Part shown: positions 1,542-46,720 of the stretch, in pieces | Numbering within the stretch: the first letter of the stretch is position 1 | Layout of the letters: the number at the start of each line of letters is the position of its first letter | From: Coriobacteriales bacterium | Lineage (GTDB): Bacteria > Actinomycetota > Coriobacteriia > Coriobacteriales > UBA8131 | DNA length: 54,599 bases | Assembly: GCA_031272005.1 (NCBI GenBank) | Contig: JAISUQ010000060.1 | Span: forward strand, 1-54,599 | Direction: 5' to 3' | Position numbers and translations under genes: made by a program | Notes under the pieces: generated by a model | Told to the model about the DNA's origin: nothing | Seen by the model: only the letters and a program-made list of their open reading frames with translations | Database searches by the model: none

Positions 1542-2549
1542 TTACTCCATGTCCACTATGACCTTGATGGCCTCGGTTTTGTCGGCCGCCTTCTTCAAAG
1601 CCGCGTCCAACTCACTGAAGGGGAAGTGATGCGTGATGATCTCGTTGACCAAAGTGCGTCCGGAGGATAAATTGTCCATGACCTCGCGAATATCCTCGTC
1701 GTCATAGCCGTTGGAGCCCAGGATGTGACCTTCGCTGCTCATGACCTGGTAGGTGATGATGTCCTGGGGCTTCATGTTGATGCCCACGATGGACAGGCGT
1801 GCGTCGGGCTTGCCCAGCTTGAAGAACTCCTCAACCATGTTCGGCGCCCCGGCGCAGTCCACAACGATGTCCACGTTGATGGCATTTCCGTAGCCACGTT
1901 TGGGCACTGTGCCCCAGAGATCGGTGAGGAACTCGAACTTGTCGCCCTCTTCCGGCAGTGGTGCGACAATCACGCCCATCTTCTCCAGCAGAGCCCGCTT
2001 GTAATCAGAAAGCACGATGTCCACCACAACCGGTTTGATGCCTTGGGCTACGAGGGCACTGAGACAGAACAGGCCGATGGAGCCGGCGCCGTAGACCACC
2101 ACATTGTCGCCGGGTTTGGCGCCGGGGCGGTTCTTGCCACGCGTGCCCACACCAAAGGGCTCAATCAGCGAAGCCTCATCCCAACTGATGTTGTCCGGCA
2201 GATGCCAGGCACCCTGGCCCTCGGTGGCGTTCAGCACCTTGATGTATTCGGAGAAGCCGCCTGCCTGGCAGGTGTAGATGATGCTGGACACACAGCGGCT
2301 CGGGTGTACCCAGACCCGCTCGCCCTCCTTGAAATCCTTGACGTCCTTGCCCACTTCGGCTACCCAACCGGCGGTCTCGTGGCCGAACTGCTTGCCTGGC
2401 TCTACGCCAGCCCCATTGATGTCCGAGCCACAGATTGACGAGCGCACCGTCTTGACCAGGATCTCACCCGGCCCGATCTCCGGCCGCTCAATCTCCTCGA
2501 TGGCCGCTTCCAACATGCCTTTGTAGATACCAGCCTTCATTGTTGCCAT
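1542..2549 (-). CDS. Zn-dependent alcohol/polyol dehydrogenase (MDR superfamily)
   Basis: 335 aa. Has SICGSD and GHETAG Zn-site motifs and a VVVYGAGSIG Rossmann motif. RBS GGGAGAG upstream. Confidence 0.85.
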   Translation of the reverse strand: MATMKAGIYKGMLEAAIEEIERPEIGPGEILVKTVRSSICGSDINGAGVEPGKQFGHETAGWVAEVGKDVKDFKEGERVWVHPSRCVSSIIYTCQAGGFSEYIKVLNATEGQGAWHLPDNISWDEASLIEPFGVGTRGKNRPGAKPGDNVVVYGAGSIGLFCLSALVAQGIKPVVVDIVLSDYKRALLEKMGVIVAPLPEEGDKFEFLTDLWGTVPKRGYGNAINVDIVVDCAGAPNMVEEFFKLGKPDARLSIVGINMKPQDIITYQVMSSEGHILGSNGYDDEDIREVMDNLSSGRTLVNEIITHHFPFSELDAALKKAADKTEAIKVIVDME

Positions 2550-2584
2550 TTCTTTCTCTCCCTTCCGTCTTCGATTATCAGCTC

Positions 2585-3385
2585 CTACAACGCTATATCA
2601 CCCAGACCTACGTCGGCGGACTTGGTCGAGACTGCCAGCTGCTTACTCTTGCCATCGGCTTCGATGGTCAGTGTGAAGTCAGCGTCTGGCAGGTCGCGTA
2701 ACCAGAAGTCACCCCAGCCGTCGGTCGTGGCGGTGTAGGTGCCGGCCTCTCCGCTCAGCGTCGCCTTGGCGCCGATACGCACCTCCTTGGCCTCCGGGTC
2801 GTAGATCGTGCCGGCCACGAACTTCTTCGGCAGGCCGCCCTTGTAATAGACCCGCGGCTTGGTGCCGTACTCCGGGTGCAAAACCTCGCAGTCCGAAAGG
2901 TCGAAGTCGGCTTCTTCGCCGAACTTGATGAGGTCGACATGGCAGTTATCCACGCAGCGGGGCGTACTGATTGGATGGTCGCCGTCCAGCAGGTGAGCGC
3001 AGCCGGTGCACTTCTGGGCCAACTGCAGCTCCTCGTTCCAATAGATGACATGGTAAGGGCAGCTCTCCACGATCTTCTTGTTGCCCTTGGCCTTGACGGG
3101 GTCGATAACCACCAGGCCGTCTTCGCGCTTATAGACTGCGTCCGGGGCGGCCTTGATGCACGGCGCGTCGTCGCAATGGTTGCAGAGCACGGGCAGATAG
3201 GTCACGATGACATGCGGTCGGGCGCCGCGCTCGTATTGGTTCAGCTTGCACCAGAACTGCCCACTGACCGGCTGTTCTGCCGCATAGGGCAGCCATTCGT
3301 TGCCGCAATGCTCATCCTTGCAGCCGACCTGGCAGTCATGGCAGCCCACACAACCCTTATAGTCGATTACGAAAACCTTGGCCAT
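2585..3385 (-). CDS. 4Fe-4S beta subunit of a DMSO-reductase-family enzyme, pyrogallol transhydroxylase BthL-like
   Basis: The start was moved to MAKVFVIDYKGCVGCHDC (ATG at 3385, RBS AGGAGA), giving 266 aa. It has several CxxCxxCxxxC-type motifs. The C-terminal beta-sandwich tail (GTKPRVYYK ... IEADGKS ... VGLGDIAL) closely recalls the Pelobacter acidigallici BthL sequence as I remember it. Confidence 0.85.
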   Translation of the reverse strand: MAKVFVIDYKGCVGCHDCQVGCKDEHCGNEWLPYAAEQPVSGQFWCKLNQYERGARPHVIVTYLPVLCNHCDDAPCIKAAPDAVYKREDGLVVIDPVKAKGNKKIVESCPYHVIYWNEELQLAQKCTGCAHLLDGDHPISTPRCVDNCHVDLIKFGEEADFDLSDCEVLHPEYGTKPRVYYKGGLPKKFVAGTIYDPEAKEVRIGAKATLSGEAGTYTATTDGWGDFWLRDLPDADFTLTIEADGKSKQLAVSTKSADVGLGDIAL

Positions 3386-3390
3386 CTCAA

Positions 3391-6012
3391 TCACTCTCCT
3401 TCGACCCATGAAGCGTAGTTGCTGCCGATGGCCGGGTCGTAGTCGCGCGCCCAGGCGTCCGGGTACTGCTGCTTCCACTGGTCATACTCAGCCTTTTCCA
3501 GTTTGGCGCACTCCACCAGATAGTTGGTCACGGCGAAGCCCGCGCAGTGCTTGGAGATATAGCGCGGCGGGCTGATCAGGTTGGAAGAACCGCCGCGATC
3601 GATGTGCGGGGCAATCGGGTCGACGCGCGAACCCTTGGCGATATTGACGGACCCGGGGATAGTGCGCACCGAGATGCGTGCACCACAGAGGATAATTCCC
3701 TGATCGTTGAAGACCTTGACGATGTCGCCGTTTTGGATGCCGCGCGCTTCAGCGTCCTCAGGCGCCAGCCAGACCGGCTCGTAATCGTAGCCATCCCAAC
3801 CCTTGACCTTGACGGTCTCGATCTCGCGGAACCAGATCATATCGTCACCCTGTACATGGGTGCGGAAGCGGCCGGCCGTGGAACAGAGCAACAGTGGATA
3901 CTCCTTGGCTTTCTCGCCATAGGGTGTTTCATCGTGCATCCAGCCGTCCTCGCTGGAACCGCCGATGAACCAGCGGGCCATCGGCTGACGCTCCTGGTCA
4001 TCCGGGAAGTTATCCGCCAGAGCCTGCGACCAGAACTCGATCTTGCCCGAGGGCGTATCCAGCGGGAAGCTCTCCGGATCCTCATAGAAGTTCTGCATGC
4101 CACGCGGTATGTCCCGCCAGTCCGGGTCCAGCTTGGGAACATAGTAAGTACGCTCTTTCAGCTTATCAAAGCTGACTTCTTGCGAAATCGGGAACATGTT
4201 GAAGGCTGCCTCAAACCACTGATCTTCGGTCATGCCTTTGCTGATATTCTGATCGACACCAAAGCGCTTGCCGATCTCCAAGGCAATCTCGTAGTCACTC
4301 TTGCTTTCGCCTACTGGATCGCAGGCCCGCTCGTTCAGGCAGGCATACTTGACCTGGGTAACCTGGCTGCCGCCGACATCGTCGCGCTCCTCCATGACAG
4401 TGGTTACCGGAAGGATCATGTCACAGAACAATGAGTCGTTCTCCAGCCATTGGTGGTTGGTCAGGAAGAACTCCACCTTGGGGCTGCGAATGGCGTCCTG
4501 GTAGTTGAAGCCACCGTTCCAACAGCCCATGTTGCAGGGCTTTTCGCTCCAGAGCAGATGCACTTCGGTACCGCCCTGGTCGGCCGGCAACGGATAGTTG
4601 TACTCGGTGAACTGATCCTCGCGGCTGGCCTTGATGATTGAGGGGCTGCCCCACCACTTGGCCGTGCCTTCGTTGATGACCTTGGCGACCATGGTGCGCG
4701 GCACCTGCTGGGGTACTGTCACAAACATGCTGGAACGATTGCACATCGTTATCGGGAAGGTAGTGGTCTTGGCGGCAGTCGGCTTGGCCATCTCCGAATT
4801 GGTGATATACATCTGGTTGACGCCGGGCTTGCCCAAGCCCTGCATGGCCATCTTGTAGGCAGCAGTACGTCCCGGCTCGTGGGAGTACGGGCCTTTGACA
4901 TGACCGCTGGAGAAGTGCACCAGCGCAGTCCGCATCGTGCCCCATTTGCGGGCCAGGGCCTTGATTGTCCATTCGGGCACACCGCATATCGGGGCTGCCC
5001 ACTCCGGGGTCTTAGGCTGCCCGTCCTCTTCACCGAGGACGTAAGCTGTGAGCTTGTCGAAGCCGACAGTGTGGGTCTGCACATAATCCTTGTCGTAGAG
5101 CCCCTCGGTAATCCAGACATACATCAGGGCGAAGTCCAGCGCCACGTCGGTGTTGGGCAGGATTGGAACCCATTTCATCGTTGGATGGCAGACCGCCGTG
5201 TAGTTGCAGAAGGGGTCGACGATGACGAACTCCTTGCCCAGCTCCTCCCAATACTTGATCAGACGGCTCAGGCCCTGACCGGCATAGTTCTGGGTCAGCT
5301 CGATGTCGCCGGCATGGAAGGCGATCAACTCAGTGTTCTCGCAGATGTCCAGGGGCACGTTCCACGAGCAATAACCGGTTTCTGGAGGTGCAGCCAGGCC
5401 GAGGCCAAAATTGGAGCCGGCGCCCCAGACGTGTTTGGCGCCCCAGTACCAGCCCTCAACGCTGTCGGGGGTGCGCACCTCGCGGGTATAGCCACCCAGT
5501 TCCTTGAGCAGGGTCATGTGCATGCCGCCGCCAGAGTGCAGGTCCTTGCTCTCGCGGTGGCCGTCTTCGCCGATGCAGAGTATCGCATAAGGGCCATAGG
5601 TCTCGGTGACCCGTTTGAGCTCGGACTCGATGATGTCCAGAGCCTCGTCCCAACTGATGCGCTTGAACTTGCTGATGCCGCGGTTCTGCGGGTTGGTCTT
5701 GGCTGGGTCGCCACCGGGCTCCCAGTCCACGCGCTGGAGCGGGTACTTGACGCGGTTCTTGGAGTAGACGCGGTTCTTGTAGGCCAGGGCGAAATAGGTA
5801 GGTGTGGCTTTCATTGAGGTCTTGAGTTTCTTGCCCTGGAAGTCGTACTCCCAGAAGCTGTCCTCCAGCTCCTCTGGCGTATAGTTCATGTCCCAGTGCA
5901 GCGGGCGGATGCGGACGATTTTACCGTCCTTGGAGTCGATGGCTACCGGATCGCCGCCGGTTCCGCCCATGGCGACACCTCGGACGACCGTGCGGACATC
6001 CTTATCTCCCAT
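3391..6012 (-). CDS. Molybdopterin (bis-MGD) oxidoreductase alpha subunit, pyrogallol hydroxytransferase (AthL) / resorcinol hydroxylase-like
   Basis: 873 aa. It has no twin-arginine signal and no N-terminal CX2CX3C FS0 motif. Segments DSVEGWYWGAKHVWG, YVLGEEDGQPKTPEWAA..GVPEWTIKALARKWG and DRGGSSNLISPPRYISKHCAG match remembered AthL segments. RBS AAGGAGG. Confidence 0.85.
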   Translation of the reverse strand: MGDKDVRTVVRGVAMGGTGGDPVAIDSKDGKIVRIRPLHWDMNYTPEELEDSFWEYDFQGKKLKTSMKATPTYFALAYKNRVYSKNRVKYPLQRVDWEPGGDPAKTNPQNRGISKFKRISWDEALDIIESELKRVTETYGPYAILCIGEDGHRESKDLHSGGGMHMTLLKELGGYTREVRTPDSVEGWYWGAKHVWGAGSNFGLGLAAPPETGYCSWNVPLDICENTELIAFHAGDIELTQNYAGQGLSRLIKYWEELGKEFVIVDPFCNYTAVCHPTMKWVPILPNTDVALDFALMYVWITEGLYDKDYVQTHTVGFDKLTAYVLGEEDGQPKTPEWAAPICGVPEWTIKALARKWGTMRTALVHFSSGHVKGPYSHEPGRTAAYKMAMQGLGKPGVNQMYITNSEMAKPTAAKTTTFPITMCNRSSMFVTVPQQVPRTMVAKVINEGTAKWWGSPSIIKASREDQFTEYNYPLPADQGGTEVHLLWSEKPCNMGCWNGGFNYQDAIRSPKVEFFLTNHQWLENDSLFCDMILPVTTVMEERDDVGGSQVTQVKYACLNERACDPVGESKSDYEIALEIGKRFGVDQNISKGMTEDQWFEAAFNMFPISQEVSFDKLKERTYYVPKLDPDWRDIPRGMQNFYEDPESFPLDTPSGKIEFWSQALADNFPDDQERQPMARWFIGGSSEDGWMHDETPYGEKAKEYPLLLCSTAGRFRTHVQGDDMIWFREIETVKVKGWDGYDYEPVWLAPEDAEARGIQNGDIVKVFNDQGIILCGARISVRTIPGSVNIAKGSRVDPIAPHIDRGGSSNLISPPRYISKHCAGFAVTNYLVECAKLEKAEYDQWKQQYPDAWARDYDPAIGSNYASWVEGE

Positions 6013-6113
6013 AACGTGCCTCCTTTCATATTGTTGTTTTCAGGGATTGCTCTATTGTCCAGTCTATCGGGTTCGCGTGCCTGACTGTAATTGGCAATCA
6101 ACTGCAACTATCA

Positions 6114-6133
6114 CCAGTAACTTGGCTTACTGG
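6114..6133. promoter_or_regulatory. Operator-like inverted repeat CCAGTAA-N6-TTACTGG upstream of the Mo-enzyme genes
   Basis: Perfect 7-bp arms in the 224-nt spacer between the stop at 6237 and the alpha-subunit start at 6012. No cognate regulator is identified. Confidence 0.3.
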
Positions 6134-6236
6134 CGGCGAATGTCAGACTATCAGGATAGAAAGGCTGTTTTGTCAGCTTTAAGCGAACATATACCGGCTT
6201 TTGTGTGCGGCCGCTGCGGCCTGGCCACTTCCTGGT

Positions 6237-7646
6237 TTATTGCTTGACGGACTGTTCAATGCGTAGAGTCAGCATGGCGCCGAGGTCGTAGGCCTTGCTG
6301 CCAGCGACGTCCTCATCGCAGACCAGGTTGAAGCCCACCAGGCGGCGGTTCGTCTCGGCCGAAAGCGGCTTTGTATCCGTGCCAGCCACGGCATCTGCTT
6401 CGGTGCCTGCTCCGGCGTCAGTCACGGCGTCTGCTTGCGCATCTGCTTCCGCGCGCTGGTAAATCCGGATGACCGTCATATCGTCGCTCTCTTCAATCTC
6501 CGTGTAACGGTCTGGAGTCAGCTCCATGGTGCCGGCGGAGATGAACAGCGTGCCTCTGACAGCGATGGTGTTGGTGGCGATTGAGCCCGGATAGGCATCC
6601 TCGGCTGCCAGTGGCTGGCAGGCCAGTTCGGCAGCGATAGCCCGTCCGGCGCAGGCGCCCTGCACGGCGGCGTTCTTCCAGATGCCGACGATGCGTTGTT
6701 CTCCAGAGACCAACTCCAGGGCCTGGGCCACATCGCCGGCGGCATAGACGTCGGGGTCGGAGGTGCGCATCCATTCGTCCACCAGCAGCGCCCGATCCAT
6801 CTCCAGCGCACCTTCGGCCAAAAAGTCCAGGTTGCACTTCATGCCATGGGCCACGGTAATCTCGTCAAAGACAGCGGTTTCGCCGCCGGAGAAGGTTACC
6901 TGCAGCTGGCGACCTGCGGCGGCGGATTCAGGGCTGGGGTCGGAACCGGAAGCGGAGTCCGGGCAGTCCTCTGAACCGGAGCCAGAGCCGCTGTCGAGCA
7001 CCTGCACCGTCTGGATGGTCTGGCCCAGCAGCAGCCTGACGCCCTGGCGCAGCAGGCCCTGCTCAAAGCGGATGGCCGCTTCCGGCAGCGCATTGAAGTC
7101 CAAAACGTGCGGGTTCATCCCCACCAGAGTGACCTCGGCTCCGCGCTCCAGGGCGGCCTCCAGGCTCTTTAAGGCCACCAGCGAGGCGCCGGAGACCAGC
7201 ACGCGCCGGCAGCCCGGCCGCAACAGGGCGGCCTTCAGGCGCTCGGCGTCCTCCATCGTCCGCAGCACCAGCGGTTCGTAGTCGCAGGCCGGAAACCCCC
7301 AGCGCATCGGCGTGGCGCCGCTGGCGATGACGCACTTGGTATAGCTGTAGTCGCCCATAGCGGTGCGAATGCGATGGTTGGCCGGGTCCAGCTCCACAAC
7401 GGCGCTGCCTGTCAGAACCTCGGCACCCAGCTCGGCCAGCTCCTCCGCACTCCAGGGGAAGCATTGCTCCCAGCTTTTCTGGCCGCCGGCGTAATCTGAG
7501 GTCAGGATCGGGCTGTAGGGCGGTATCGAGGTGTTGGAGAACACCTGGATCTTGCCGGTATATCCGGCGTTGCGTAGGGCAATCAGGGCGTTGACACCGG
7601 CGGTGCCATAGCCGATGATGGCCACAGAAGTCTCCTGGTTTGTCAT
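6237..7646 (-). CDS. FAD/NAD(P)-dependent pyridine nucleotide-disulfide-family oxidoreductase
   Basis: 469 aa. First dinucleotide fold is VAIIGYGTAGVNA and the second is RVLVSGASLVALK; also YAAGD. Two low-complexity inserts are present (DSGSGSGSED..., EADAQADAVTDAGAGTEADA...). RBS AGGAGG. Confidence 0.8.
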   Translation of the reverse strand: MTNQETSVAIIGYGTAGVNALIALRNAGYTGKIQVFSNTSIPPYSPILTSDYAGGQKSWEQCFPWSAEELAELGAEVLTGSAVVELDPANHRIRTAMGDYSYTKCVIASGATPMRWGFPACDYEPLVLRTMEDAERLKAALLRPGCRRVLVSGASLVALKSLEAALERGAEVTLVGMNPHVLDFNALPEAAIRFEQGLLRQGVRLLLGQTIQTVQVLDSGSGSGSEDCPDSASGSDPSPESAAAGRQLQVTFSGGETAVFDEITVAHGMKCNLDFLAEGALEMDRALLVDEWMRTSDPDVYAAGDVAQALELVSGEQRIVGIWKNAAVQGACAGRAIAAELACQPLAAEDAYPGSIATNTIAVRGTLFISAGTMELTPDRYTEIEESDDMTVIRIYQRAEADAQADAVTDAGAGTEADAVAGTDTKPLSAETNRRLVGFNLVCDEDVAGSKAYDLGAMLTLRIEQSVKQ

Positions 7647-7658
7647 CCCGCTCGCCTC

Positions 7659-8858
7659 CTAACCCAACACCTGGGCCAGCCAGGGCCCGTACTCGCCGCT
7701 CCACATGCCCTCCAGCTGCCCAAACACCTGCTGCCAGTCGAACTGGTTTACAAACAGCAGCTCGGTGTAGTGCTTGTTGGTCACCGGGCGCGGATTGTTC
7801 AACAGGTAGAAGGCGTAGGTATAGGTGCAGGTGGGACACATCGTCACCACGGTCGCGCCGTCCGGGCAAAACGATAGCTTGCTATCAGTTTGTTTCTCCT
7901 GGCGGTCCAGGCTGAAGGCGCTGACCGCTCCGCCGGCGCCGCAGCAGCCGTTGAAGATTGCCGGGGTGGTGGCGTCGATACCCAGGGCGGCACAGGTCTG
8001 CTCCAGATAATCGCCGTCACGGTCCTGGCAGGATTTGGAGAGCCACAGCTGCTCGCGAGGCACTTCCTGGGTGGGGCTGAAGCTGTGCTCAGCCAGAAAC
8101 GCCGCCAGGCTCACAGTCTTGATGTCCAAAGCGTGCCGCGCCAGTGTCTGGCGCATCTCATTCACACAACCCGGACAGACACAGACCAGCTGCCGGGCCC
8201 CGGAACTCTGCAACTCGCTGGCTATGCGGTCGCAAAGTGCCTCGGCGCGGGCGTAGAATCCGGCGCTTTTCAGCGGCGAACCGCAGCACAGATCAATCAA
8301 TGTGGCCTTTCCGCCCAACTGCTCCACGGTGGTGAAGATCTCCCGTGTCAGCTCGGGGGCGTAAGCGGCCAGAGAGCAGCCGGGCATCAGGGCTATCTCG
8401 CAATCCGTGGCGCCCGACAGCCCTTCGCCCGGCAGATGACGCGTCAGGTCGGCAAAGCCGATGCCGTAAACCGCCCGATAGGCGGTAAAGACGTCCCACT
8501 CCTGATCCACCTGCACGCTGGACCAGCTGTCGCGCGGAATCAGGCCCAGGTTTTGAAAGTCCACGCGGGCATGGTAAATCAGTTTGGTGACGTCGTTGTG
8601 GGCAAAGCAGGTATTTTTACACTGGGTGCAGAAGAAGCAGCCGCGCACGGCCTGCACCAGCCGGGGGTTCTCGGCGATACGCTCGGCCAGTTCCTCGGGG
8701 GTGGTGGCGCCTCGCTGGGCAGCCAGCAGGGCCTTGGCTATTTCGCCTAAGGTCATATCGGCGGCAATCAGGGATTCGCAGGCATCGGTACAATGACCGC
8801 ATTGCGTGCACTGACCGGTGAATTCCCAATAGACCTGCGCGCAACTGAGCAGGCTCAT
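7659..8858 (-). CDS. (Fe-S)-binding protein with two 4Fe-4S motifs and CCG cysteine-rich domains (HdrD/GlpC/LutA-like)
   Basis: 399 aa. Motifs CTQCGHCTDAC and CFFCTQCKNTC, followed by CCGSPL, VCPGC, GCCGAGG and MCPTC. It lies 12 nt upstream of the FAD oxidoreductase gene. Confidence 0.8.
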   Translation of the reverse strand: MSLLSCAQVYWEFTGQCTQCGHCTDACESLIAADMTLGEIAKALLAAQRGATTPEELAERIAENPRLVQAVRGCFFCTQCKNTCFAHNDVTKLIYHARVDFQNLGLIPRDSWSSVQVDQEWDVFTAYRAVYGIGFADLTRHLPGEGLSGATDCEIALMPGCSLAAYAPELTREIFTTVEQLGGKATLIDLCCGSPLKSAGFYARAEALCDRIASELQSSGARQLVCVCPGCVNEMRQTLARHALDIKTVSLAAFLAEHSFSPTQEVPREQLWLSKSCQDRDGDYLEQTCAALGIDATTPAIFNGCCGAGGAVSAFSLDRQEKQTDSKLSFCPDGATVVTMCPTCTYTYAFYLLNNPRPVTNKHYTELLFVNQFDWQQVFGQLEGMWSGEYGPWLAQVLG

Positions 8859-10715: not shown

Positions 10716-11672
10716 ATGCGCATCAAAGGGCAAATGGACACCGATAATGGCACCGCCGAACGACCTTGGGTGCTGGCGCCGCATCAGGTGGCGGCTTACC
10801 TAGCACGCATCGGTTATGATGGCGATTGTCAACCGACCCCCCAAACACTTCAAGCCCTGCAACGGGCCCACCTGCTCAATGTGCCGTTCGACAATCTGGA
10901 CATCATGGCTGCCCGGCCGCTGGTCTGCGATCTGGGCGGGCTGTACGACAAAATCGTCGGCCAGCGGCGGGGCGGCATCTGTTACGAGTTGAACAGCCTG
11001 TTTGCCGCGCTGCTGCGCTCACTGGGGTTTACGGTGGAGATTTACTCGGCGCGTATCCCCGGCGAGCTGTATAACCAGGACTTCGATCACCTGTTGCTTG
11101 GCGTGCCGTTGGCCGGGCAGCTTTGGCTGGCCGATACCGGCTTTGGCCGGGGCAGCTTCCTGGAGCCGATATTGCTGCAGCCCGGGTTAGCCCAAGAAGA
11201 TGCCCGGGGCAGCTTTCGGATTGCCCGGATTGAGACGGCGACAAAGCCCGACTCGGCAACCGACGCAGATGTACGCCAGCCAACAGCTGCTGCAACCGAC
11301 ACAGACTCACGCCAGCCAGAAGCCGCCACAACCGATGCGCAAGCCGGCACCTGGCCCGCCTACCAGTTGTACTGGCAGCCACCGGGCGGCGAGCCTTCGC
11401 TGTCCTACAGCTTCACCACTCAGCCCCGCGCGCTGGCTGAGTTCGTTCCCCGTTGGACGCACTTCGCCACCGCGCCTGATTCGCGCTTCCGCAGCAACTC
11501 CCTGGTAGCCAAAGACACGCCGGACGGTCGAATCTCGCTGACCAGCGACCGCCTGCTCATCACCGCAGGTGGTCAGCAGCAGCGCATTGAGATTGCCGAT
11601 GAGGCTGCGTACTGCTCCGCGCTTTCTGAGCACTTCGGCATCACCTGGCCGGATGGGGAGCTGCCAGCCTGA
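10716..11672 (+). CDS. Arylamine N-acetyltransferase (NAT family)
   Basis: 318 aa. The catalytic-Cys motif RRGGICYELN is present, and the N-terminal YLARIGY...L..L...HL..VPFDNLD is typical of NAT. It contains a duplicated ~11-aa low-complexity insert (DADVRQPTAAATD / TDSRQPEAATTD). Confidence 0.8.
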   Translation: MRIKGQMDTDNGTAERPWVLAPHQVAAYLARIGYDGDCQPTPQTLQALQRAHLLNVPFDNLDIMAARPLVCDLGGLYDKIVGQRRGGICYELNSLFAALLRSLGFTVEIYSARIPGELYNQDFDHLLLGVPLAGQLWLADTGFGRGSFLEPILLQPGLAQEDARGSFRIARIETATKPDSATDADVRQPTAAATDTDSRQPEAATTDAQAGTWPAYQLYWQPPGGEPSLSYSFTTQPRALAEFVPRWTHFATAPDSRFRSNSLVAKDTPDGRISLTSDRLLITAGGQQQRIEIADEAAYCSALSEHFGITWPDGELPA

Positions 11673-19421: not shown

Positions 19422-19517
19422 GGTTCAGGGGCAGGTTTTTCGGCAGGTTTACAGGCCGGTTCACAGCCCGGTTCACAGCCCGGTTCACAGCCCGGTTTAC
19501 AGGCCGGTTTACAGGCA
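19422..19517. repeat. Eight tandem copies of a 12-bp unit (GGTT[CT]ACAG[CG]CC)
   Basis: The copies are ggttcaggggca / ggtttttcggca / ggtttacaggcc / ggttcacagccc x3 / ggtttacaggcc / ggtttacaggca. The array abuts and slightly overlaps the moeA stop at 19509-19511. Confidence 0.85.
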
Positions 19518-20705
19518 GGCTGGATTGGCTCGCAGCTCCACGGTCAGCGTCTCGCCGGCCTTGTGCGGCGGCTCGCCAATCTGGTTGATATACTGGCCGC
19601 TGGTGACGCCGATGCGATATGGCCCGCTGCCGCGATGCAGGGAGAGGGGCTCGGCGGTGTAGCCCTCAGGCGTTTGGCGTACTTCCAGGCGATTCCAGAA
19701 CTCCAATACCTGCGGGCTTTTCAGATCGCTGGTCAGTATAGCCTGCACCTGCTGGTGTTGCTCGGGCGCAGTACCCAGGGCATGGGCCACTACCGCCTTG
19801 ATGCACCAGTCAAAGACATAGCAGCAACCGACCATCGGCCCGGGCACCACCACTACCGGCTTGTCATCAATCAGGCCAATCAGGGTAGGCCGGCCGGGCG
19901 CAGCCAATACGCCATGGCAGAGCACGGTGCCGCGCTGGCGCACCAATGTGGTATTCAGATCCTCCTCACCTTTGGAGGAACCACCATTAATCAACACGAT
20001 ATCGGCTTGGACCAGAGCCTGATCCAGAGCGCTGGCCAGATCGGCGGCTTTATCCCTGACGATTGGGTAGATCACAGGCACAGCACCATAGCTTGATAGC
20101 ATATGCCTGGCGAAGGTGGAATTGCAGTCGACCTGCTGGCCGCGTTGCGGTTGCGCACCGGCCGGCACCAGCTCGCTGCCGGTGGGGATAAAGGCCACCC
20201 GTGGCCGCTGCACCACCTCCACCGCAGTGATACCGCCGCGCACCAGCGTCGCTGTATCCTCCGGACGGATGCGCCAGCCAGCGGGCAGCAAAAAGTCGCC
20301 CGGCGCCAGGGAGGCGCCGCCAGGCTCGACATTCATCCCGGCGGTCACCTCCAGGTCCTCTGGCAACGCGATGCCGCCGCCATCCAGCAACGTCACGTCC
20401 TCGATGCGGATTACGGCATCAAAACGGTCATCAAAGTCGTCGCCGGTATCGGCGCGTACATAGTCGCGCCCCAGCGCAAAGCCCGACAAGTCCGGTCGCG
20501 CAGCAGCAAAGGCTGCCGAGGCCACGGCGATGCCGTCCATGCAGGAGGCCCGCACCACCGGATAGCTCAGCAGCGAGCACTGCTCACTGGCCAGCACCCG
20601 CCCCACACTGTCATCCACGGCCACCTGCTCGGTCATCCGTGTCGGCTGCCAGGCGGCAAACAGTGCGGCCAGGGCTTCCTGCTTGGTGAACTTGTCAAAC
20701 TCCAT
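19509..20705 (-). CDS. moeA: Molybdopterin molybdotransferase MoeA
   Basis: 398 aa. N-terminal ...EALAALFAAW...VAVDDSVGRVLA...PVVRASCMDGIAV and the central MoeA/gephyrin E-domain layout are present. RBS AAGGAG. Confidence 0.85.
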   Translation of the reverse strand: MEFDKFTKQEALAALFAAWQPTRMTEQVAVDDSVGRVLASEQCSLLSYPVVRASCMDGIAVASAAFAAARPDLSGFALGRDYVRADTGDDFDDRFDAVIRIEDVTLLDGGGIALPEDLEVTAGMNVEPGGASLAPGDFLLPAGWRIRPEDTATLVRGGITAVEVVQRPRVAFIPTGSELVPAGAQPQRGQQVDCNSTFARHMLSSYGAVPVIYPIVRDKAADLASALDQALVQADIVLINGGSSKGEEDLNTTLVRQRGTVLCHGVLAAPGRPTLIGLIDDKPVVVVPGPMVGCCYVFDWCIKAVVAHALGTAPEQHQQVQAILTSDLKSPQVLEFWNRLEVRQTPEGYTAEPLSLHRGSGPYRIGVTSGQYINQIGEPPHKAGETLTVELRANPACL

Positions 20706-40225: not shown

Positions 40226-40254
40226 TTGACTAATTCTAATATAGGTGTTAAACT
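40226..40254 (+). promoter_or_regulatory. Sigma-70-like promoter TTGACT-17-TAAACT upstream of the radical SAM cluster
   Basis: The -35 is at 40226-40231 and the -10 at 40249-40254. It has the same architecture and the same TAAACT -10 as the promoter at 30927. It leaves a leader of roughly 120 nt before the GTG at 40379. Confidence 0.5.
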
Positions 40255-40378
40255 GCCAAATGGATTGAAGCACATTGTCTTCCATGTAGCGGGGCCCGGG
40301 GTTGGTCTGCTCCGGGTCTTTGCATGTCAGCGAAGTGCTGACTTCCTAACACGGCGGATTTTACAGGAGGCGCAGACA

Positions 40379-41392
40379 GTGGATAAATTCAGAAGCCAGA
40401 TTATCGACATCGTGGATAAAGGCCGGCTGGGCCAGGGGTTGGAAGACGATGAGATCCTCCAACTCTACTCCACCGACCCGGAGTCGCCCGAGGCCTTCTA
40501 CATCATGTGGGCCGGTCGCCAGCTGCAGCGCCAGGCCGCCAACAACATCGCCGAGGTGCACGCCCAAATCGGCCTCAACGGCTCGCCCTGTCCCAAGAAC
40601 TGCCAGTTTTGCAGCTTCGCCATCTGCAACGGCGTGCGTCAGGGCAAGCTGGAGATGCCTTTGCAGGATGTGCTGGAATACATCAAGATTTACCAGGAGC
40701 AGGGCGCCAATGCCATCCTGATGATGGTCACGGCCACCTACAAGTTCGAGAAGCTGTTGGAGATGGGCGCTGCCGCCCGCGCGGTGATGGACAAGGAGCT
40801 GCCGCTGCTGGCCAACACCGGCGACATGAGCCTGGAGCAGGCTCAGCAGCTTAAGGCCGCCGGATTCAACGGCTGCTACCATGCCGTGCGCATGGGGGAG
40901 GGCGTAACCACCACCATCCCCGTCGAGCGACGCCTGGAGACCATCGACAACATCCATGCTGCGGGCTTGAGCCTCTCCACCTGCGTGGAGCCGGTCGGCC
41001 CGGAGCATACGCCTCAGGAATTGACGGAGAAGACCCGCATCTGCATCAACTCCGGGGCGCTTTCGGCCGGCGTGGGCAAGCGGATCATGATTCCCGGCAC
41101 CATGCTGGCCAAATACGGGCAGTTGAACAACCTGGTAGCCGGGCGCAACGTCGCCGTCTACCGCCTGGCTGCCGGGCTCAAGCCGCGCCTGAACTGCGCT
41201 GGTGGCACCGATTTGGCCTCGGCCATGGGCGCAAATCTGGCCTGGGCGGAGATGGGCACCAACCCGCGTGATACCGAGGAGCGCACCGAGAAGGGCGGTC
41301 GCGGTGTGGACATCGCTTTCTGCAAGAAGGTCTTCAACGACGCTGGCTGGGATGTATTGGAAGGCCCGTCACCCGGCTGGATCCTGGACTGA
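40379..41392 (+). CDS. Radical SAM protein, BioB-fold (biotin synthase / HydE / PylB-like), paralogue 1
   Basis: GTG start after RBS CAGGAGG, 337 aa. The CX3CX2C motif is CPKNCQFCSF. By eye it is collinear with BioB (LANTGDMSLEQAQQLKAAG..YHAV; AGLSLSTCVEP; GTNPRD). Confidence 0.8.
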   Translation: MDKFRSQIIDIVDKGRLGQGLEDDEILQLYSTDPESPEAFYIMWAGRQLQRQAANNIAEVHAQIGLNGSPCPKNCQFCSFAICNGVRQGKLEMPLQDVLEYIKIYQEQGANAILMMVTATYKFEKLLEMGAAARAVMDKELPLLANTGDMSLEQAQQLKAAGFNGCYHAVRMGEGVTTTIPVERRLETIDNIHAAGLSLSTCVEPVGPEHTPQELTEKTRICINSGALSAGVGKRIMIPGTMLAKYGQLNNLVAGRNVAVYRLAAGLKPRLNCAGGTDLASAMGANLAWAEMGTNPRDTEERTEKGGRGVDIAFCKKVFNDAGWDVLEGPSPGWILD

Positions 41393-41393
41393 G

Positions 41394-42428
41394 ATGGGGC
41401 GGCCGGGGAGCCTAGACCTGGCCGCCTCGCCCCAAGGCAGGCGGACCAGCATCAAGCGCCATGAGCAGCGGGTGACCAGCATCCGCGAGCTGTTCTGGAT
41501 GCTGCTGCCGGTATCCGGGCTGCTCATCGCCTTGGGGCTGCACTACGGGCTGCCAAACGTCTACCCGCTGGCCTACCACCCCAAGACCTACGGCCCGGTG
41601 CTGATCGGCCTGGGTGCTATCTATATAGCATTGATGGCTGCTGCCTGCTTCTGGCCGGCGTTGCGCCGGCGCCTGCGGCACTTCTCCGGCATCTTCTTCG
41701 TCTTGGCCCTGACGCTGGCGGCGCTGGATGTCGCCACCCTCAAGACCGGCTGGCTGCGCCTGCCCTTTGTACCCTCGCCGGATAAGATCCTCTCCGTTTA
41801 CCCAGACAACGCGGCGCAGTTTGTGGAGAACTTCCTGGCCAGCATGAAACTGCTGTTCACCGGGGTGTTTCTGGGTACCCTGGCCGGGGTGCTGAGCGGC
41901 ATCCTGATGGGCTGGAGCCGCATCGCCAACTATTGGATATCCCCGGTGCTCAAGGTCATCGGCCCGGTGCCGGGGGTGGCCTGGCTGCCGATTGCCATGG
42001 TGCTGATGCCCTCCTCGCGCGCTGCCGGTCTGTTCCTGATTGGCCTGGCGCTGTGGTTTCCCCTCACGCTGATGATCTCCACCGCCATCCGCGACACCGA
42101 CGTCCGCCTGATCGAGAGTGCCCGGGTGCTGGGCGCCTCCGAGCTGCATATCCTCACCCACGTGGCCATCCCGGCGGCCATCCCGGCCATGTTCACCGGC
42201 ATGTTCATGGGGCTCTCGGCCAGCTTCGGCGCCCTCATCTACGCCGAGATGCTGGGGGTCAAAGCCGGTTTGGGCTGGTACATCGAGTGGTCGCGGGCCT
42301 GGGGCGAGTACGCCAAGATCTTCGCCACCATCGGCATCTTCATCGTGCTGTTCTTCGCGCTGATCGAGATTCTGTTCCGCATCCGCAACCACGCCATGAA
42401 GTGGCAGAAGGGCGTAGTGCGGTGGTGA
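41394..42428 (+). CDS. ABC permease, NitT/TauT (SsuC/TauC/ThiX-like) family with extra N-terminal TMs
   Basis: The ATG lies 1 nt after the preceding stop. 344 aa. The binding-protein-dependent transport signature region is ESARVLGAS....THVAIPAAIPAMFTG. Confidence 0.8.
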   Translation: MGRPGSLDLAASPQGRRTSIKRHEQRVTSIRELFWMLLPVSGLLIALGLHYGLPNVYPLAYHPKTYGPVLIGLGAIYIALMAAACFWPALRRRLRHFSGIFFVLALTLAALDVATLKTGWLRLPFVPSPDKILSVYPDNAAQFVENFLASMKLLFTGVFLGTLAGVLSGILMGWSRIANYWISPVLKVIGPVPGVAWLPIAMVLMPSSRAAGLFLIGLALWFPLTLMISTAIRDTDVRLIESARVLGASELHILTHVAIPAAIPAMFTGMFMGLSASFGALIYAEMLGVKAGLGWYIEWSRAWGEYAKIFATIGIFIVLFFALIEILFRIRNHAMKWQKGVVRW

Positions 42429-43183
42429 CGGAGAAGATTGGACTGGAAGCCGCAGAGCTCCTGCGCATCTTTGAGGACGCTGACGGCAACGAGGTCGTTG
42501 CCCTGGACGGTTTCAGCTTAAGCATCCAAGGCAGCGAGACCGTGGGCTTGATTGGCCCGTCCGGCTGCGGCAAGTCGACCTTCCTGCGCCTGGTGGCCGG
42601 GCTGGACCAGCCGCAGGGCGGCAGCCTCAGCGTGGGCGGCCAGCCCATCACCGGCCCGGATTACCACCGCGGCCTGGTCTTCCAAAACGCCGCCCTGTTC
42701 GAGTGGCTGACCGTTTGGGACAACATCGCCTTCGGCCTCAAAGCCCGCAAAGTCTACCGTCAGCAGAAACAACGCGTCCAGGAACTCATCGACCTGATGG
42801 GTCTGACCGGCTTCGAGAAGTCCTACCCGCACCAGATCTCCGGCGGCATGGCCTCGCGCACCGCCCTGGCCCGCTCCTTCATCCAGGAGCCGGACATCAT
42901 CCTGCTGGATGAGCCGCTGTCCTCGCTGGATGCTTTCACCCGGGCGACCATCCAGGACCAAATCATCGACATGCAACGCCGCGCTCAGGCGATCATTATC
43001 TTAGTAACCCATGATATCGAAGAGGCAGTCTATCTCTGCGACCGGATCATCGTCATGAGCGCCCGCCCCGGGCGCGTCCTCGGCGAGGTGGCCGTAGACC
43101 TGCCGCACCCCCGCGACCGCACCGAGGAGCGCTTCATCGCCCTGCGCCGTGCGGTGATGCATCTGCTAGGCAACCAGGCTTGA
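42422..43183 (+). CDS. ABC ATP-binding protein, NitT/TauT (SsuB/TauB-like) family
   Basis: GTG start overlapping the permease stop (GTGA at 42425 is an alternative). Walker A is GPSGCGKST, the signature is ISGGMASR and Walker B is IILLDEP, with H-loop VTHD. About 253 aa. Confidence 0.85.
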   Translation: MVTEKIGLEAAELLRIFEDADGNEVVALDGFSLSIQGSETVGLIGPSGCGKSTFLRLVAGLDQPQGGSLSVGGQPITGPDYHRGLVFQNAALFEWLTVWDNIAFGLKARKVYRQQKQRVQELIDLMGLTGFEKSYPHQISGGMASRTALARSFIQEPDIILLDEPLSSLDAFTRATIQDQIIDMQRRAQAIIILVTHDIEEAVYLCDRIIVMSARPGRVLGEVAVDLPHPRDRTEERFIALRRAVMHLLGNQA

Positions 43184-43239
43184 GGGTTGTCCCCATCAGG
43201 CCTGGTAACTATAGGAGCTCTACCAAAGGAGGAACAGCA

Positions 43240-44310
43240 ATGCAGGAATTATCGAGAAGGAAGTTCATCCAAGCGGCCGCCGTGGCCACAGCCGCCGCCG
43301 GCCTGGCCACCACCGGCCTGGCTGGTTGCCAGCAGCAGGCCGCCGACGACCAGGCCGCTGCAACGGATGGCGCCGATGCCAGCACCGACGCCAGCAGCGC
43401 TCCAGAGAAGATCCCCGTCACCGTAGGCTACTGGGGCGGCACCTGCGAGTCACCCATCTTCATCGGCGTGGAGCAGGGCATCTTCGAGGAGGAAGGCCTG
43501 GATGTCGACGTGCTGCAAATCACGGCCGACGTAGCCCCGCTGATGGCCAACGACGAGCTGGACTGCTTCGAGCTGACGCCGGATAAGTTCAAGCCGATCC
43601 AAAACGGCCTGGAGGTCAAGATCATCGACTCGCTGCACATCGGCTGCATCGGCGGCGCCGCCTCGGTGGAAAGCGGCATCAAGACCGTGGCCGACCTGGA
43701 GGGCAAGACGGTAGCCGCCTCCATCGGCTCCATCCCCCAGATCCAGATTGCCTCCCAGATGGTCCTGGCCGGCAAGGACCCCAACAAGGTCAACTGGGTG
43801 ACTTATCCCAACGCCGAGATGGAACTGGCCCTGGACAACGGCGAGATCGATGCCTTTGCCGCCTACGACCCCTTCCCCTCGATGGCCTGGGAAAACGGCA
43901 AGGTACGCTTCTTCTCCAACACCTATGACGAGGGGCTCAAGGAGTACCTCTGCTGCTTCGTAGGCCTCTCCGACCGCGCTCTGAACCGGGAGAACGGCAC
44001 CGAGCTGGCCCGCCGCCTCTCCGCCGCCTTCAAGCGCAGCTGCGCCTTTTTGCAGGAGAATCCCGATGAGGCCGCCCAGATCGTCCAGACGGCCGGCTAC
44101 ATCGCCGGCGACGCCGAGATGAACGCCCATTGCATCAGCGAGTACACCTGGGTGGCCGGCGACAAACAGCTGCTTGACGATAGCGTCTACGAGATCTGGA
44201 TGCAGATCTACCGCGCCGGCGCCCTGGAGGAAGCCCCCAAAGACGAGGCCGAGCTGGACGCCTACATCAAGGAGCTACGCGCCGGCATGGTCGCCTACTA
44301 CGGCGACTGA
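43240..44310 (+). CDS. Tat-exported lipoprotein, NMT1/THI5/SsuA-like ABC substrate-binding protein, Cys-rich
   Basis: The ATG follows RBS AAAGGAGG. The twin-arginine motif is SRRKFIQ and the lipobox is GLAGC. 356 aa. I counted seven Cys in the mature part, including a vicinal CC (EYLCCFVG). Confidence 0.8.
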   Translation: MQELSRRKFIQAAAVATAAAGLATTGLAGCQQQAADDQAAATDGADASTDASSAPEKIPVTVGYWGGTCESPIFIGVEQGIFEEEGLDVDVLQITADVAPLMANDELDCFELTPDKFKPIQNGLEVKIIDSLHIGCIGGAASVESGIKTVADLEGKTVAASIGSIPQIQIASQMVLAGKDPNKVNWVTYPNAEMELALDNGEIDAFAAYDPFPSMAWENGKVRFFSNTYDEGLKEYLCCFVGLSDRALNRENGTELARRLSAAFKRSCAFLQENPDEAAQIVQTAGYIAGDAEMNAHCISEYTWVAGDKQLLDDSVYEIWMQIYRAGALEEAPKDEAELDAYIKELRAGMVAYYGD

Positions 44311-44337
44311 GGGTTGCGCGGAGAAGACCCGGCAGCA

Positions 44338-45525
44338 ATGACTTCGGCAACGGGAGCGGCGACGGCAACGGCGGCAACGACGACAACGGCAACAGCGGCA
44401 GCGGCAACGGCAACAACGGCAACGGCGACAGCAGCGGCAGCGGCAACGGCAACAGCGACAGCAGCGGCAGCGACAGCGGCAGCAACGTCAGCGCCACCAG
44501 CCACTGCTGGCGCGCCGGTTAAGACGCCAGGCCGGGCGGTTGCGCCAGCAGGCGGCAAGGGTCTCCATGCCCGCCTGCTGGCCGCCCTGGCTGGCGAGAC
44601 GCTGGATTTTGCGGAAGCGCTGGCGTTGTACACCATGCCGGAGGACAGCCCCCAAGCCCAGGCGCTCATCTCCGCCGCCCGTCTGCTGACCCGCCAGGCC
44701 AACGGTGGGCGCGGGCAGGTCTTCGCCCAGATCGGCCTGGACGCCCTGCCCTGCCCGGAGATGTGCCAGTATTGCAGCTTCGCCGCCAACAGCACGGCCC
44801 TGGAGGCTCGCGACGTCCTCAGTCTGGATGAGGTAGTGGCCTATGCCCGCGCCTTCGATGCGGCCGGTATCCACCTGGTGTCTTTGATGGCCACGGCGGC
44901 TTGTGACTTTCAGCGCTATTTGGCGATAACCGCCGCTGTGCGCCAGGTGCTGCAGCCCAGCGTGCCGATCCTGGCCAACCTCGGTGACCTGGACGCCGGG
45001 CAGGCCCAGGCGCTGCGCCAGGCCGGTGCCAACGCCATCTACCATGCTGTGCGCCTTGGCGAGGGTTCAATCACCAACATCGACCCGACCCGTCGCTGGC
45101 AGACCATCTCCCATGCCAGCCTGGCTGGCCTGAAGCTGATGACCGGCGTCGAGCCGCTTTACGAGCAGCAACAGCCTCAGGACGTGGTAAACCGGATGTT
45201 CGAGACCCTACGCAGCGGTGCGCTGTGTACCGGTTGCTGCCCGCTGGTGCCGGTGGTCGGCACGCCGCTGGCCGATGCCGGCTGCACGCCACCAACACCC
45301 CAGCGTCGCCAGCTTATCGGCGCCATCTATCGCCTGGTAATCGGCACCAGCATCCCCTTCGGCCTGGGTGGCATCAGCTGGGTGGACGCCGGCACCAACC
45401 CCCGCGGTCGCCACCTGAGCAAAGACCCTGCCGAACTGCAGCGTCAGGTGGCGGAGAAGAAGCAGGCTCTGGCCGCCGAGGGTTGGAGCATCCCCGCGCG
45501 CCCGCTGCCGGAATGGCAGGCCTGA
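44338..45525 (+). CDS. Radical SAM protein, BioB-fold, paralogue 2, with an Ala/Thr low-complexity N-terminus
   Basis: CX3CX2C motif CPEMCQYCSF. It shares AQIGL, P[LI]LAN.GD, AG.N..YHAVR.GEG, AGL.L.T.VEP, GTNPR and AGW motifs with paralogue 1. There is no in-frame start codon between about 44338 and the conserved core, so the ~50-aa (A/T)n tract appears to be translated. A TTG at 44314 is an alternative start. Confidence 0.75.
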   Translation: MTSATGAATATAATTTTATAAAATATTATATAAAAATATATAAAATAAATSAPPATAGAPVKTPGRAVAPAGGKGLHARLLAALAGETLDFAEALALYTMPEDSPQAQALISAARLLTRQANGGRGQVFAQIGLDALPCPEMCQYCSFAANSTALEARDVLSLDEVVAYARAFDAAGIHLVSLMATAACDFQRYLAITAAVRQVLQPSVPILANLGDLDAGQAQALRQAGANAIYHAVRLGEGSITNIDPTRRWQTISHASLAGLKLMTGVEPLYEQQQPQDVVNRMFETLRSGALCTGCCPLVPVVGTPLADAGCTPPTPQRRQLIGAIYRLVIGTSIPFGLGGISWVDAGTNPRGRHLSKDPAELQRQVAEKKQALAAEGWSIPARPLPEWQA

Positions 45526-45529
45526 AGCC

Positions 45530-46720
45530 ATGCCTGTACACCGCGCCGGCCAGCCCAAGGTCTACCTGGATAACAGCTCCACCAGCTTCCCCAAGCCACC
45601 GGGTGTGGTCAAGGCGGTGACCGAGTACCTGGAGGATGTCGGCTGCAACCTCAACCGCACCGGCTTTGCCACCAGCTGCGTGCTGAACAAGCGCACCCGC
45701 GAAGCCCGCACCCGCTTGGCACGCCTGTTCAATTATCCCGAGTTCAAGCACGTCTGCTTCACCACAGGTATTACCACCAGCCTGAACATCGCCCTCAAAG
45801 GTCTGCTCAAGCGCGGCGACCACGTGCTGATCTCGCACATGGAGCACAACGCCGTGACCCGGCCGCTGTTCCAACTGCGTCGCCGGGGCGTCAGCTTCAG
45901 CTTCATCCCCTGCGCCAGCGACGGCACCCTTGATCCAGCCAGCATCCCGCCGCTGCTCAAGCCCAACACCCGCGCCATCTGCTGTCTGCACGGCTCCAAT
46001 GTCTGCGGCACCATCCTGCCGATCCGCCAGATTGGCGCCATCGCCCGCGAGGCCGGTTTGCTGTTCATCGTCGACAGCGCCCAGAGCGCCGGTGTGCTGC
46101 CCATCGACATGCAGGCCGATAACATCGACGTCCTCTGCTTCGCTGCCCACAAGGGCCTGCTCGGCCCGCCCGGCGTCGGCGGCCTGATTCTGCGCCCGGA
46201 GTTGGGCAGCCGCATCGAGCCTTTGGTGGTCGGCGGCACCGGGGTCTTCTCCGAGGAGGACAAAGTGCCAGACGACCTGCCGATGCATCTGGAGAGCGGC
46301 ACGCCCAACCTGATGGGCTACTATGGCCTGGCGGCTGCCCTGCGCTGGCTGGAGAAGACCGGCATCGAGCGCATCCACGCCCGGGAGGTGGAGCTCTACG
46401 AGCATCTGCTGGCCGGCCTGCAGCAGTTGGACAGCCTGTGCATCCACGGCACTCAGGACAGTCGCACTTCGCTGTGCGTTTTGGCGGTCACCGCGCCGGG
46501 TTTGGACATCGGCCAGGTGGCTTGGCGGCTGGATTCCAAGCATCGGGTGAGCACCCGCTGCGGCCTGCACTGTGCGCCTTGGGCCAACCGGGCCATCGGC
46601 ACCTGGCCCACCGGTACTCTGCGCCTTTCGCCCGGCTACTTCACCAAACCCCGTGAGTTGGACTATGCTGTAAGCGCATTGGAGGAATCGCTATGGTACG
46701 TGCGCAAGCAGACGAGGTGA
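45530..46720 (+). CDS. Class V aminotransferase / cysteine desulfurase (SufS/CsdA/selenocysteine-lyase-like)
   Basis: 396 aa. It has YLDNSSTSFP, FAAHKGLLGP (PLP lysine) and STRCGLHCAP (active-site Cys loop). Confidence 0.85.
   Translation: MPVHRAGQPKVYLDNSSTSFPKPPGVVKAVTEYLEDVGCNLNRTGFATSCVLNKRTREARTRLARLFNYPEFKHVCFTTGITTSLNIALKGLLKRGDHVLISHMEHNAVTRPLFQLRRRGVSFSFIPCASDGTLDPASIPPLLKPNTRAICCLHGSNVCGTILPIRQIGAIAREAGLLFIVDSAQSAGVLPIDMQADNIDVLCFAAHKGLLGPPGVGGLILRPELGSRIEPLVVGGTGVFSEEDKVPDDLPMHLESGTPNLMGYYGLAAALRWLEKTGIERIHAREVELYEHLLAGLQQLDSLCIHGTQDSRTSLCVLAVTAPGLDIGQVAWRLDSKHRVSTRCGLHCAPWANRAIGTWPTGTLRLSPGYFTKPRELDYAVSALEESLWYVRKQTR

Follow-up and report, generated by a model that had tools for sequence, protein, structure and literature searches.

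An AthL/BthL-like molybdoenzyme from a sister clade of the pyrogallol transhydroxylases and a probably independent iron-sulfur flavoenzyme lie side by side in a Coriobacteriales genome

Organization of the locus

We analyzed a 54,599-nucleotide (nt) stretch of DNA from a Coriobacteriales bacterium (contig JAISUQ010000060.1 of assembly GCA_031272005.1; hereafter the window), which is a whole contig of a 1.93-Mb metagenome-assembled genome (MAG) that is 82.6% complete. On its minus strand, between positions 1542 and 8858, five co-oriented open reading frames encode, from upstream to downstream, an iron-sulfur (Fe-S) protein with CCG domains, an FAD/NAD(P)H oxidoreductase, the alpha and beta subunits of a molybdenum (Mo) enzyme, and a dehydrogenase of the MDR family. 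In our view, these genes probably form two independent units side by side: a CCG-FAD flavoenzyme, and a Mo enzyme from a sister clade of the pyrogallol transhydroxylases which, together with the MDR dehydrogenase, would carry out phenol hydroxyl chemistry at Mo.

The same five co-oriented genes had been described in an earlier reading of this DNA (the original prediction), and all of them were recovered with Pfam support. The CCG-domain protein (7659..8858; 399 amino acids (aa)) has an HdrD/GlcF/GlpC-like architecture and is separated by 12 nt from the oxidoreductase of the ferredoxin-reductase type (6237..7646; 469 aa; Pyr_redox_2, E = 9e-40). After a gap of 224 nt (6013..6236), the alpha gene (3391..6012; 873 aa; PF00384 and PF01568) encodes the catalytic subunit binding bis-molybdopterin guanine dinucleotide (bis-MGD). 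It is followed after 5 nt by the gene for a BthL-like Fe-S beta subunit with a C-terminal beta-sandwich (2585..3385; 266 aa; Fer4_11 and CarboxypepD_reg) and, after a further 35 nt, by the gene for the MDR-family dehydrogenase, which has the Zn-ADH fold and is of the NAD(H) type (1542..2549; 335 aa; ADH_N and ADH_zinc_N). For none of the five proteins did an NCBIfam equivalog score above its cut-off.

The alpha and beta subunits

Among solved structures, the closest match of alpha was the large subunit of pyrogallol hydroxytransferase (4v4c_A; E = 2.7e-97, 330 bits). Lower scores were obtained against the trimethylamine N-oxide/dimethyl sulfoxide reductases TorA and DorA (about 200 bits, at most 210) and acetylene hydratase (48.7 bits). 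The beta subunit was closest to the small chain of the same structure (4v4c_B; E = 9.7e-59). This alignment, of residues 5-261 with residues 6-271 of 274, spans the whole length including the C-terminal beta-sandwich, and the Cys motifs of BthL are kept. The original prediction of a cytoplasmic, pyrogallol-transhydroxylase-like Mo enzyme is therefore upheld in that AthL/BthL are the closest solved structures, and the C-terminal beta-sandwich tail that it assigned to beta is confirmed by the 4v4c_B alignment and the CarboxypepD_reg match. The block-wise identity to AthL of Pelobacter acidigallici that it reported is real, but amounts to just 30% over the full length; identity to the Eubacterium oxidoreducens homologue is 31%.

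Inspection of the alpha N-terminus revealed neither a Tat (twin-arginine translocation) signal nor an FS0 cysteine motif, in agreement with what had been proposed. Upstream of the alpha ATG, the reading frame is open for 9 codons only, and a strong ribosome-binding site (GAAAGGAGG) lies before the ATG, so that a hidden signal peptide or FS0 motif can be excluded. In these respects the pair resembles the Pelobacter AthL/BthL (PgtL, PDB 4v4c), a cytoplasmic pair of 875 and 274 aa that likewise has no Tat signal and no FS0 motif, and whose beta subunit shows the same Cys motifs and C-terminal beta-sandwich. Judged by these sequence features, alpha and beta are assigned to a cytoplasmic two-subunit Mo enzyme within the broad RhL/PgtL branch of the Ser-coordinating MopB enzymes.

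The possibility that alpha is instead a gut catechol dehydroxylase of the Gordonibacter type (Dodh, Cldh, Eadh) was considered and rejected, and we regard it as very improbable. The gut catechol dehydroxylases (Dadh, Cadh, Hcdh; Dodh, Cldh, Eadh1-3) are also bis-MGD enzymes of Coriobacteriia acting on polyphenol hydroxyls, and those of the Gordonibacter type are cytoplasmic, consist of two subunits and have MFS and regulator genes close by (PMC11887054, PMC12771579). Such a cytoplasmic two-subunit layout, in a Coriobacteriia host whose genome is rich in enzymes of this kind, is what speaks for the possibility. However, the known members cluster with acetylene hydratase, apart from transhydroxylase (PMC7028382), and AthL serves as an outgroup to them (PMC11887054). 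They thus form another, acetylene-hydratase-related MopB clade with an N-terminal Cys (FS0-like) motif of their own, whereas alpha scores 330 bits against AthL and only 49 against acetylene hydratase, lacks the GPGCHxGC motif, and shares only 22-25% identity with Dodh and Cldh over their N-terminal 290 aa (residues taken from the eLife alignment). Moreover, true Cdh-type genes are found elsewhere in the genome.

One of these genes (C56:5844-6707, minus strand) shares 86% identity, across 288 aa, with the N-terminus of the catechol lignan dehydroxylase Cldh from Gordonibacter pamelaeae, and at least 25 further Cdh/acetylene-hydratase-type matches were detected in the 1.9-Mb host MAG. On contig C171 of the host, a Cdh-type gene comes directly after an AthL-like alpha/beta pair.

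Phylogeny and active-site residues

A FastTree phylogeny of 104 rows, which like the other tree contained no RhL or DbhL sequence, separated a true transhydroxylase clade, comprising AthL, its E. oxidoreducens homologue and seven related proteins, from a second clade of 90 members (clade B). The two are sisters, each with 100% support, and alpha is placed in a Coriobacteriia subclade of clade B beside proteins from termite-gut and other gut MAGs. In an IQ-TREE analysis of 50 rows, forcing the subclade of alpha together with the true clade was rejected (lnL difference 335, p-AU 6e-90), the constrained group having been chosen after the first tree was viewed. By this phylogeny, alpha falls outside the transhydroxylases in the strict sense (AthL/BthL, EC 1.97.1.2) and in an uncharacterized sister clade. 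Clade B is large: more than 5000 homologues were found, which are numerous in gut and termite-gut Coriobacteriia, and a search of protein representatives returned 437 at E < 1e-30. No published characterization of any clade-B enzyme was found.

Both clades occur together in six loci of Desulfobacterales and Actinomycetota MAGs (L081, L089, L088, L080, L073 and L070). Each of these 18-kb loci holds a true-clade gene (47-52% identity to AthL) together with one or two genes of clade B. Such sharing of a locus suggests that, in environmental anaerobes, the true clade and clade B act at different steps of a common pathway.

Active-site residues were compared in an alignment of 99 sequences (9 of the true clade and 90 of clade B) and are numbered here after AthL. 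In alpha, the counterparts of D174-S175 and H144 of AthL are D183-S184 and H152, positions that are invariant in 99/99 sequences. Altogether, neither clade varies at the Mo ligand Ser175 or at Asp174, His144, Glu177 and Trp181, which alpha and AthL therefore share. In the Pelobacter enzyme, the Mo-ligand Ser and the Asp/His pair hold and activate a phenolic hydroxyl at the metal. By contrast, Tyr404 and Tyr560 are present in 9/9 sequences of the true clade and in 0/90 of clade B, and the loops that bear both are deleted in alpha. The GGLGGW loop of AthL is also missing in alpha, and Arg153 and Trp176 are replaced by Gly and Val, respectively. Clade B has near-invariant signatures of its own that true transhydroxylases lack, namely H-x-E-x-K starting at His144 (alpha 152-156), P-C-x3-C-W (492-498) and a C-terminal extension (851-869). 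The view that the chemistry differs from the textbook pyrogallol-phloroglucinol reaction, as had been proposed earlier, is thereby supported as probable, given the position of alpha outside the true clade and the loss of Tyr404 and Tyr560.

Within the wider branch, resorcinol hydroxylase (RhLS) and 3,5-dihydroxybenzoate hydroxylase (DbhLS) provide another model of the reaction. They serve nitrate-respiring Proteobacteria and are membrane-associated. Both RhL of Azoarcus anaerobius and DbhL, the latter from Thauera aromatica AR-1, are grouped with AthL in the RhL/PgtL branch of the Ser-coordinating MopB enzymes (PMC10100899), and their enzymes use water and an external electron acceptor and no co-substrate. 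Clade B may run a reaction of the RhLS/DbhLS type, in either direction.

Conserved neighbors of the Mo enzyme

The gene for the MDR dehydrogenase, whose cofactor motif (GAGSIG followed by Asp) is of the NAD(H) type, was examined in a sample of 200 genomes of the order. Homologues (E of 1e-50 or better) were found in 8 other genomes, and five of these eight (G155, G073, G161, G181 and G066) have an AthL-like alpha gene no more than about 5 kb from the MDR gene, which supports the earlier suggestion that this dehydrogenase is a partner of the Mo enzyme. Among the related loci, MDR homologues also occur at such a distance from an AthL-like alpha gene in L014, L023, L024 and L050, and the MDR gene follows alpha/beta in L014 (68% identity), in Gordonibacter sp. 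28C and Marseille-P2775, and in an Anaerolineales MAG. By gene neighborhood, the MDR dehydrogenase thus appears as a recurrent, genuine partner of clade-B enzymes, unlike the CCG and FAD proteins.

A survey of 49 Coriobacteriia alpha/beta loci further identified a VOC/Glyoxalase_4 protein (27/49 loci), a TetR regulator (26/49), an FKBP/SlyD-like protein (18/49), an SDR (16/49), an MFS transporter (15/49) and a two-component system (13-15 of 49) as neighbors. For the VOC and SDR neighbors in related loci, no NCBIfam equivalog was found. The cassette of our host is a minimal form, consisting of alpha, beta and MDR only.

These neighborhoods bear on the alternative that alpha/beta is, like the Pelobacter enzyme, a redox-neutral transhydroxylase or isomerase, but one acting on another polyphenol or with another co-substrate. 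Such an enzyme would need no partner, and its Fe-S clusters would be relics. It is favored by the structure search, by the retained Ser/Asp/His core and by the conserved cassette (regulator, alpha, beta, VOC, SDR/MDR, MFS), which encodes no redox partner. In addition, an NAD(P)H-type reductase gene comes next, paralleling the order from transhydroxylase to phloroglucinol reductase (PGR) (PMC10470551). Nevertheless, the two tyrosines that are invariant in the true clade are absent together with their loops, Arg153 and Trp176 are substituted, alpha lies outside the true transhydroxylase clade, and DPGC and TAL family genes were not found in the genome. On balance, we consider this alternative rather unlikely.

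In the phloroglucinol pathway, the transhydroxylase step is followed by PGR, DPGC (cyclase family) and TAL (BKACE family) (PMC10470551). No match to PF04199 (Cyclase, DPGC) or PF05853 (BKACE, TAL) was obtained in the host MAG, which is 82.6% complete, and the idea that the enzyme opens the canonical pathway was set aside as improbable on this ground. The gene surroundings of alpha differ from those of AthL/BthL.

The CCG-FAD unit and the intergenic gap

In the CCG protein, two PF02754 stretches score above the cut-off (E = 1.5e-11), Fer4_7 and Fer4_17 matches lie below it, and CxxCxxCxxxC motifs are visible in the sequence. With these features the protein fits the HdrD/GlcF/GlpC type, in which two CCG domains are placed behind a predicted two-[4Fe-4S] ferredoxin module. 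The FAD protein has no redox-active Cys motif. Its best NCBIfam match is PadH-like (E = 2e-50, below cut-off), and in the PDB it is closest to 8c0z_E (E = 7.5e-27), which is the FAD subunit in a tungsten aldehyde oxidoreductase. In AorABC, the enzyme of 8c0z, and in the phenylglyoxylate oxidoreductase PadEFGHI, the Fe-S subunits of an oxidoreductase, of the pterin or another type, are fed by an FAD/NAD subunit of the same family. There, the gene for this subunit shares a conserved operon with its partner, whereas the FAD gene described here has no conserved link to alpha/beta. Low-complexity sequence rich in Ser, Gly, Asp and Ala is inserted at two places in the FAD protein (residues ~218-246 and ~399-433) and is absent from its orthologues of 415-440 aa.

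Orthologues of the CCG protein with 60-74% identity are widespread in Coriobacteriales, always with the FAD gene following, and the CCG-then-FAD order recurs with unrelated (housekeeping) neighbors in about ten contexts. Some genomes encode a single fused FAD-CCG protein of about 860 aa, and therefore CCG and FAD can be regarded as one enzyme in its own right. Conversely, none of 80 related alpha/beta loci, with flanks of up to 8 kb, carries a CCG or FAD homologue beside alpha/beta. In the closest alpha orthologues (84, 78 and 73% identity), a divergent TetR gene lies upstream in place of CCG-FAD. Downstream, the 78% and 73% orthologues have VOC, SDR, MFS and similar genes, and the contig of the 84% orthologue stops right after alpha.

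The host genome itself contains a single copy each of CCG, FAD and MDR and six AthL-like paralogues, and the five alpha/beta paralogues outside the locus have no CCG or FAD gene beside them. The host contigs C16, C24 and C49 begin or stop inside beta-subunit genes. Near-identical paralogous alpha/beta cassettes thus appear to fragment the assembly, so the copy number and the neighbors of the 68-70% paralogues are uncertain.

Within the 200-genome sample, 40 genomes carry a CCG orthologue that matches strongly (E below about 1e-99), 55 have an AthL-like gene and 30 have both; 10 have only the CCG gene (several of them at least 96% complete) and 25 only an AthL-like gene. In the window's own family, 17/32 genomes carry AthL-like genes, and a strong CCG orthologue was found in only two besides the host. 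CCG-FAD and an AthL-like gene are adjacent in two of the roughly 40 CCG-bearing genomes, namely the host and G140. With about six AthL-like loci per 2-Mb genome, a random gene would lie within 5 kb of one in about 3% of cases, so that approximately one adjacency is expected by chance among 40 genomes, according to this estimate.

The synteny break between the two units coincides exactly with the 224-nt gap. The gap contains a weak sigma-70-like match at 6176-6147 (9/12). No terminator-like site was found in it, and RNA folding of the sequence downstream of the FAD gene gave a structure of unremarkable stability (z = -1.1). A repeat search detected no repeats in the gap, and short palindromes noticed by eye were dropped. 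Comparison of the gap with the upstream regions of three alpha orthologues yielded no credible conserved promoter or operator.

Taken together, these results bear on the claim of the original prediction that CCG and FAD are redox-coupled to the Mo enzyme in one operon. According to this alternative, electrons would pass from NAD(P)H through the FAD protein, the Fe-S centers of the CCG protein and beta to Mo, and the product of the five genes would be a cytoplasmic phenol dehydroxylase or hydroxylase for which a general CCG-FAD module has been recruited as donor in the host lineage. The claim is not borne out by the 0/80 related loci, the TetR gene that occupies this position in the closest orthologues, or the recurrence of the pair alone or fused. 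Also against it are the better conservation of the autonomous CCG-FAD pair (66-74% for the top matches) compared with alpha (60-65% for most matches), the genomes having one gene without the other, the host's five other paralogues without such neighbors, and a number of adjacencies near that expected by chance. We therefore consider a single five-gene operon unlikely, and the view of two independent units remains the one we prefer.

Several observations weigh against that preferred view, most of which favor the single operon. CCG-FAD is co-oriented with alpha and merely 224 nt upstream of it, and there is no predicted terminator between them, so read-through co-transcription is possible. The nearest solved relative of the FAD protein, 8c0z_E, is an FAD subunit that binds NAD and from which a polyferredoxin and a tungsten-pterin enzyme are fed. 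The second adjacency, in G140 (locus L119), places LuxR-CCG-FAD divergently beside a different, 43%-identical AthL-like paralogue, and the co-occurrence of CCG with AthL-like genes at the family level has a raw odds ratio of about 16, a value confounded by phylogeny. Tyr404 is said to have been proposed by Messerschmidt and colleagues in 2004 as the third catalytic residue, and Tyr560 to take part in co-substrate binding. An enzyme without a co-substrate pocket, such as the residues missing from clade B would imply, would need a redox partner, for which the conserved cassette has no gene. Finally, since the MAG is 82.6% complete, the missing pathway genes are weak evidence.

Other features of the window

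Downstream of the five genes lies a gene for an unrelated VanZ/RDD membrane protein, and the protein encoded upstream of the CCG gene had no family match in Pfam. A moeA gene, noted earlier as lying some distance away, is indeed present at 19509-20705. An arylamine N-acetyltransferase gene (10716-11672, plus strand; PF00797, E = 1e-52) adjoins a pyruvate phosphate dikinase gene. At 40226-47484, a radical-SAM/NitT-TauT cluster resembles, by annotation alone, a gene set of G. pamelaeae 3C that is induced by 3,4-dihydroxyphenylacetic acid (DOPAC). Exposed to DOPAC, that strain raises the expression of a radical-SAM gene and 'nitrate ABC transporter' genes (C1877_00905-00925) by a factor of more than 1000, and that of dodh with them (eLife 2020, supplementary file 2d).

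Discussion

In this study, the test of a link between the Mo enzyme and CCG/FAD was negative and the test of a link with MDR was positive. Under the preferred explanation, a rearrangement would have juxtaposed two units. The first, CCG plus FAD, would be a self-contained NAD(P)H-linked iron-sulfur flavoenzyme of the kind found throughout Coriobacteriales. In the second, formed by alpha, beta and MDR, a plant phenolic hydroxyl would bind at Mo, and alpha/beta would remove, add or shift a ring hydroxyl without a tetrahydroxybenzene co-substrate. Electrons, if any are transferred, would pass through the three predicted [4Fe-4S] clusters of beta to or from a donor or acceptor encoded outside the cassette, and the NAD(H)-dependent MDR enzyme would then act on the product, reducing or oxidizing one of its carbonyl or hydroxyl groups.

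A different possibility is that CCG-FAD was captured at this locus, and independently in G140, as a dedicated NAD(P)H donor of a clade-B enzyme, which would then be a soluble non-catechol phenol dehydroxylase or hydroxylase. In this case, the clade-specific CxxxC pair of alpha might take part in the electron relay. We judge such a capture to be quite improbable.

If the two units are indeed independent, the useful outcome for the window is mostly negative, in that what looks like a built-in NADH wire probably reflects no more than a chance arrangement of genes. Attention would then move to the actual conserved partners, which are the MDR, SDR and VOC enzymes, the MFS transporters and the local regulator. 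Clade-B enzymes share their host organisms with the well-studied catechol dehydroxylases, and these organisms influence what becomes of dietary polyphenols. Candidates for the clade-B reaction include non-catechol phenol dehydroxylation, hydroxylation and isomerization, and solving it would fill a gap in anaerobic phenol chemistry.

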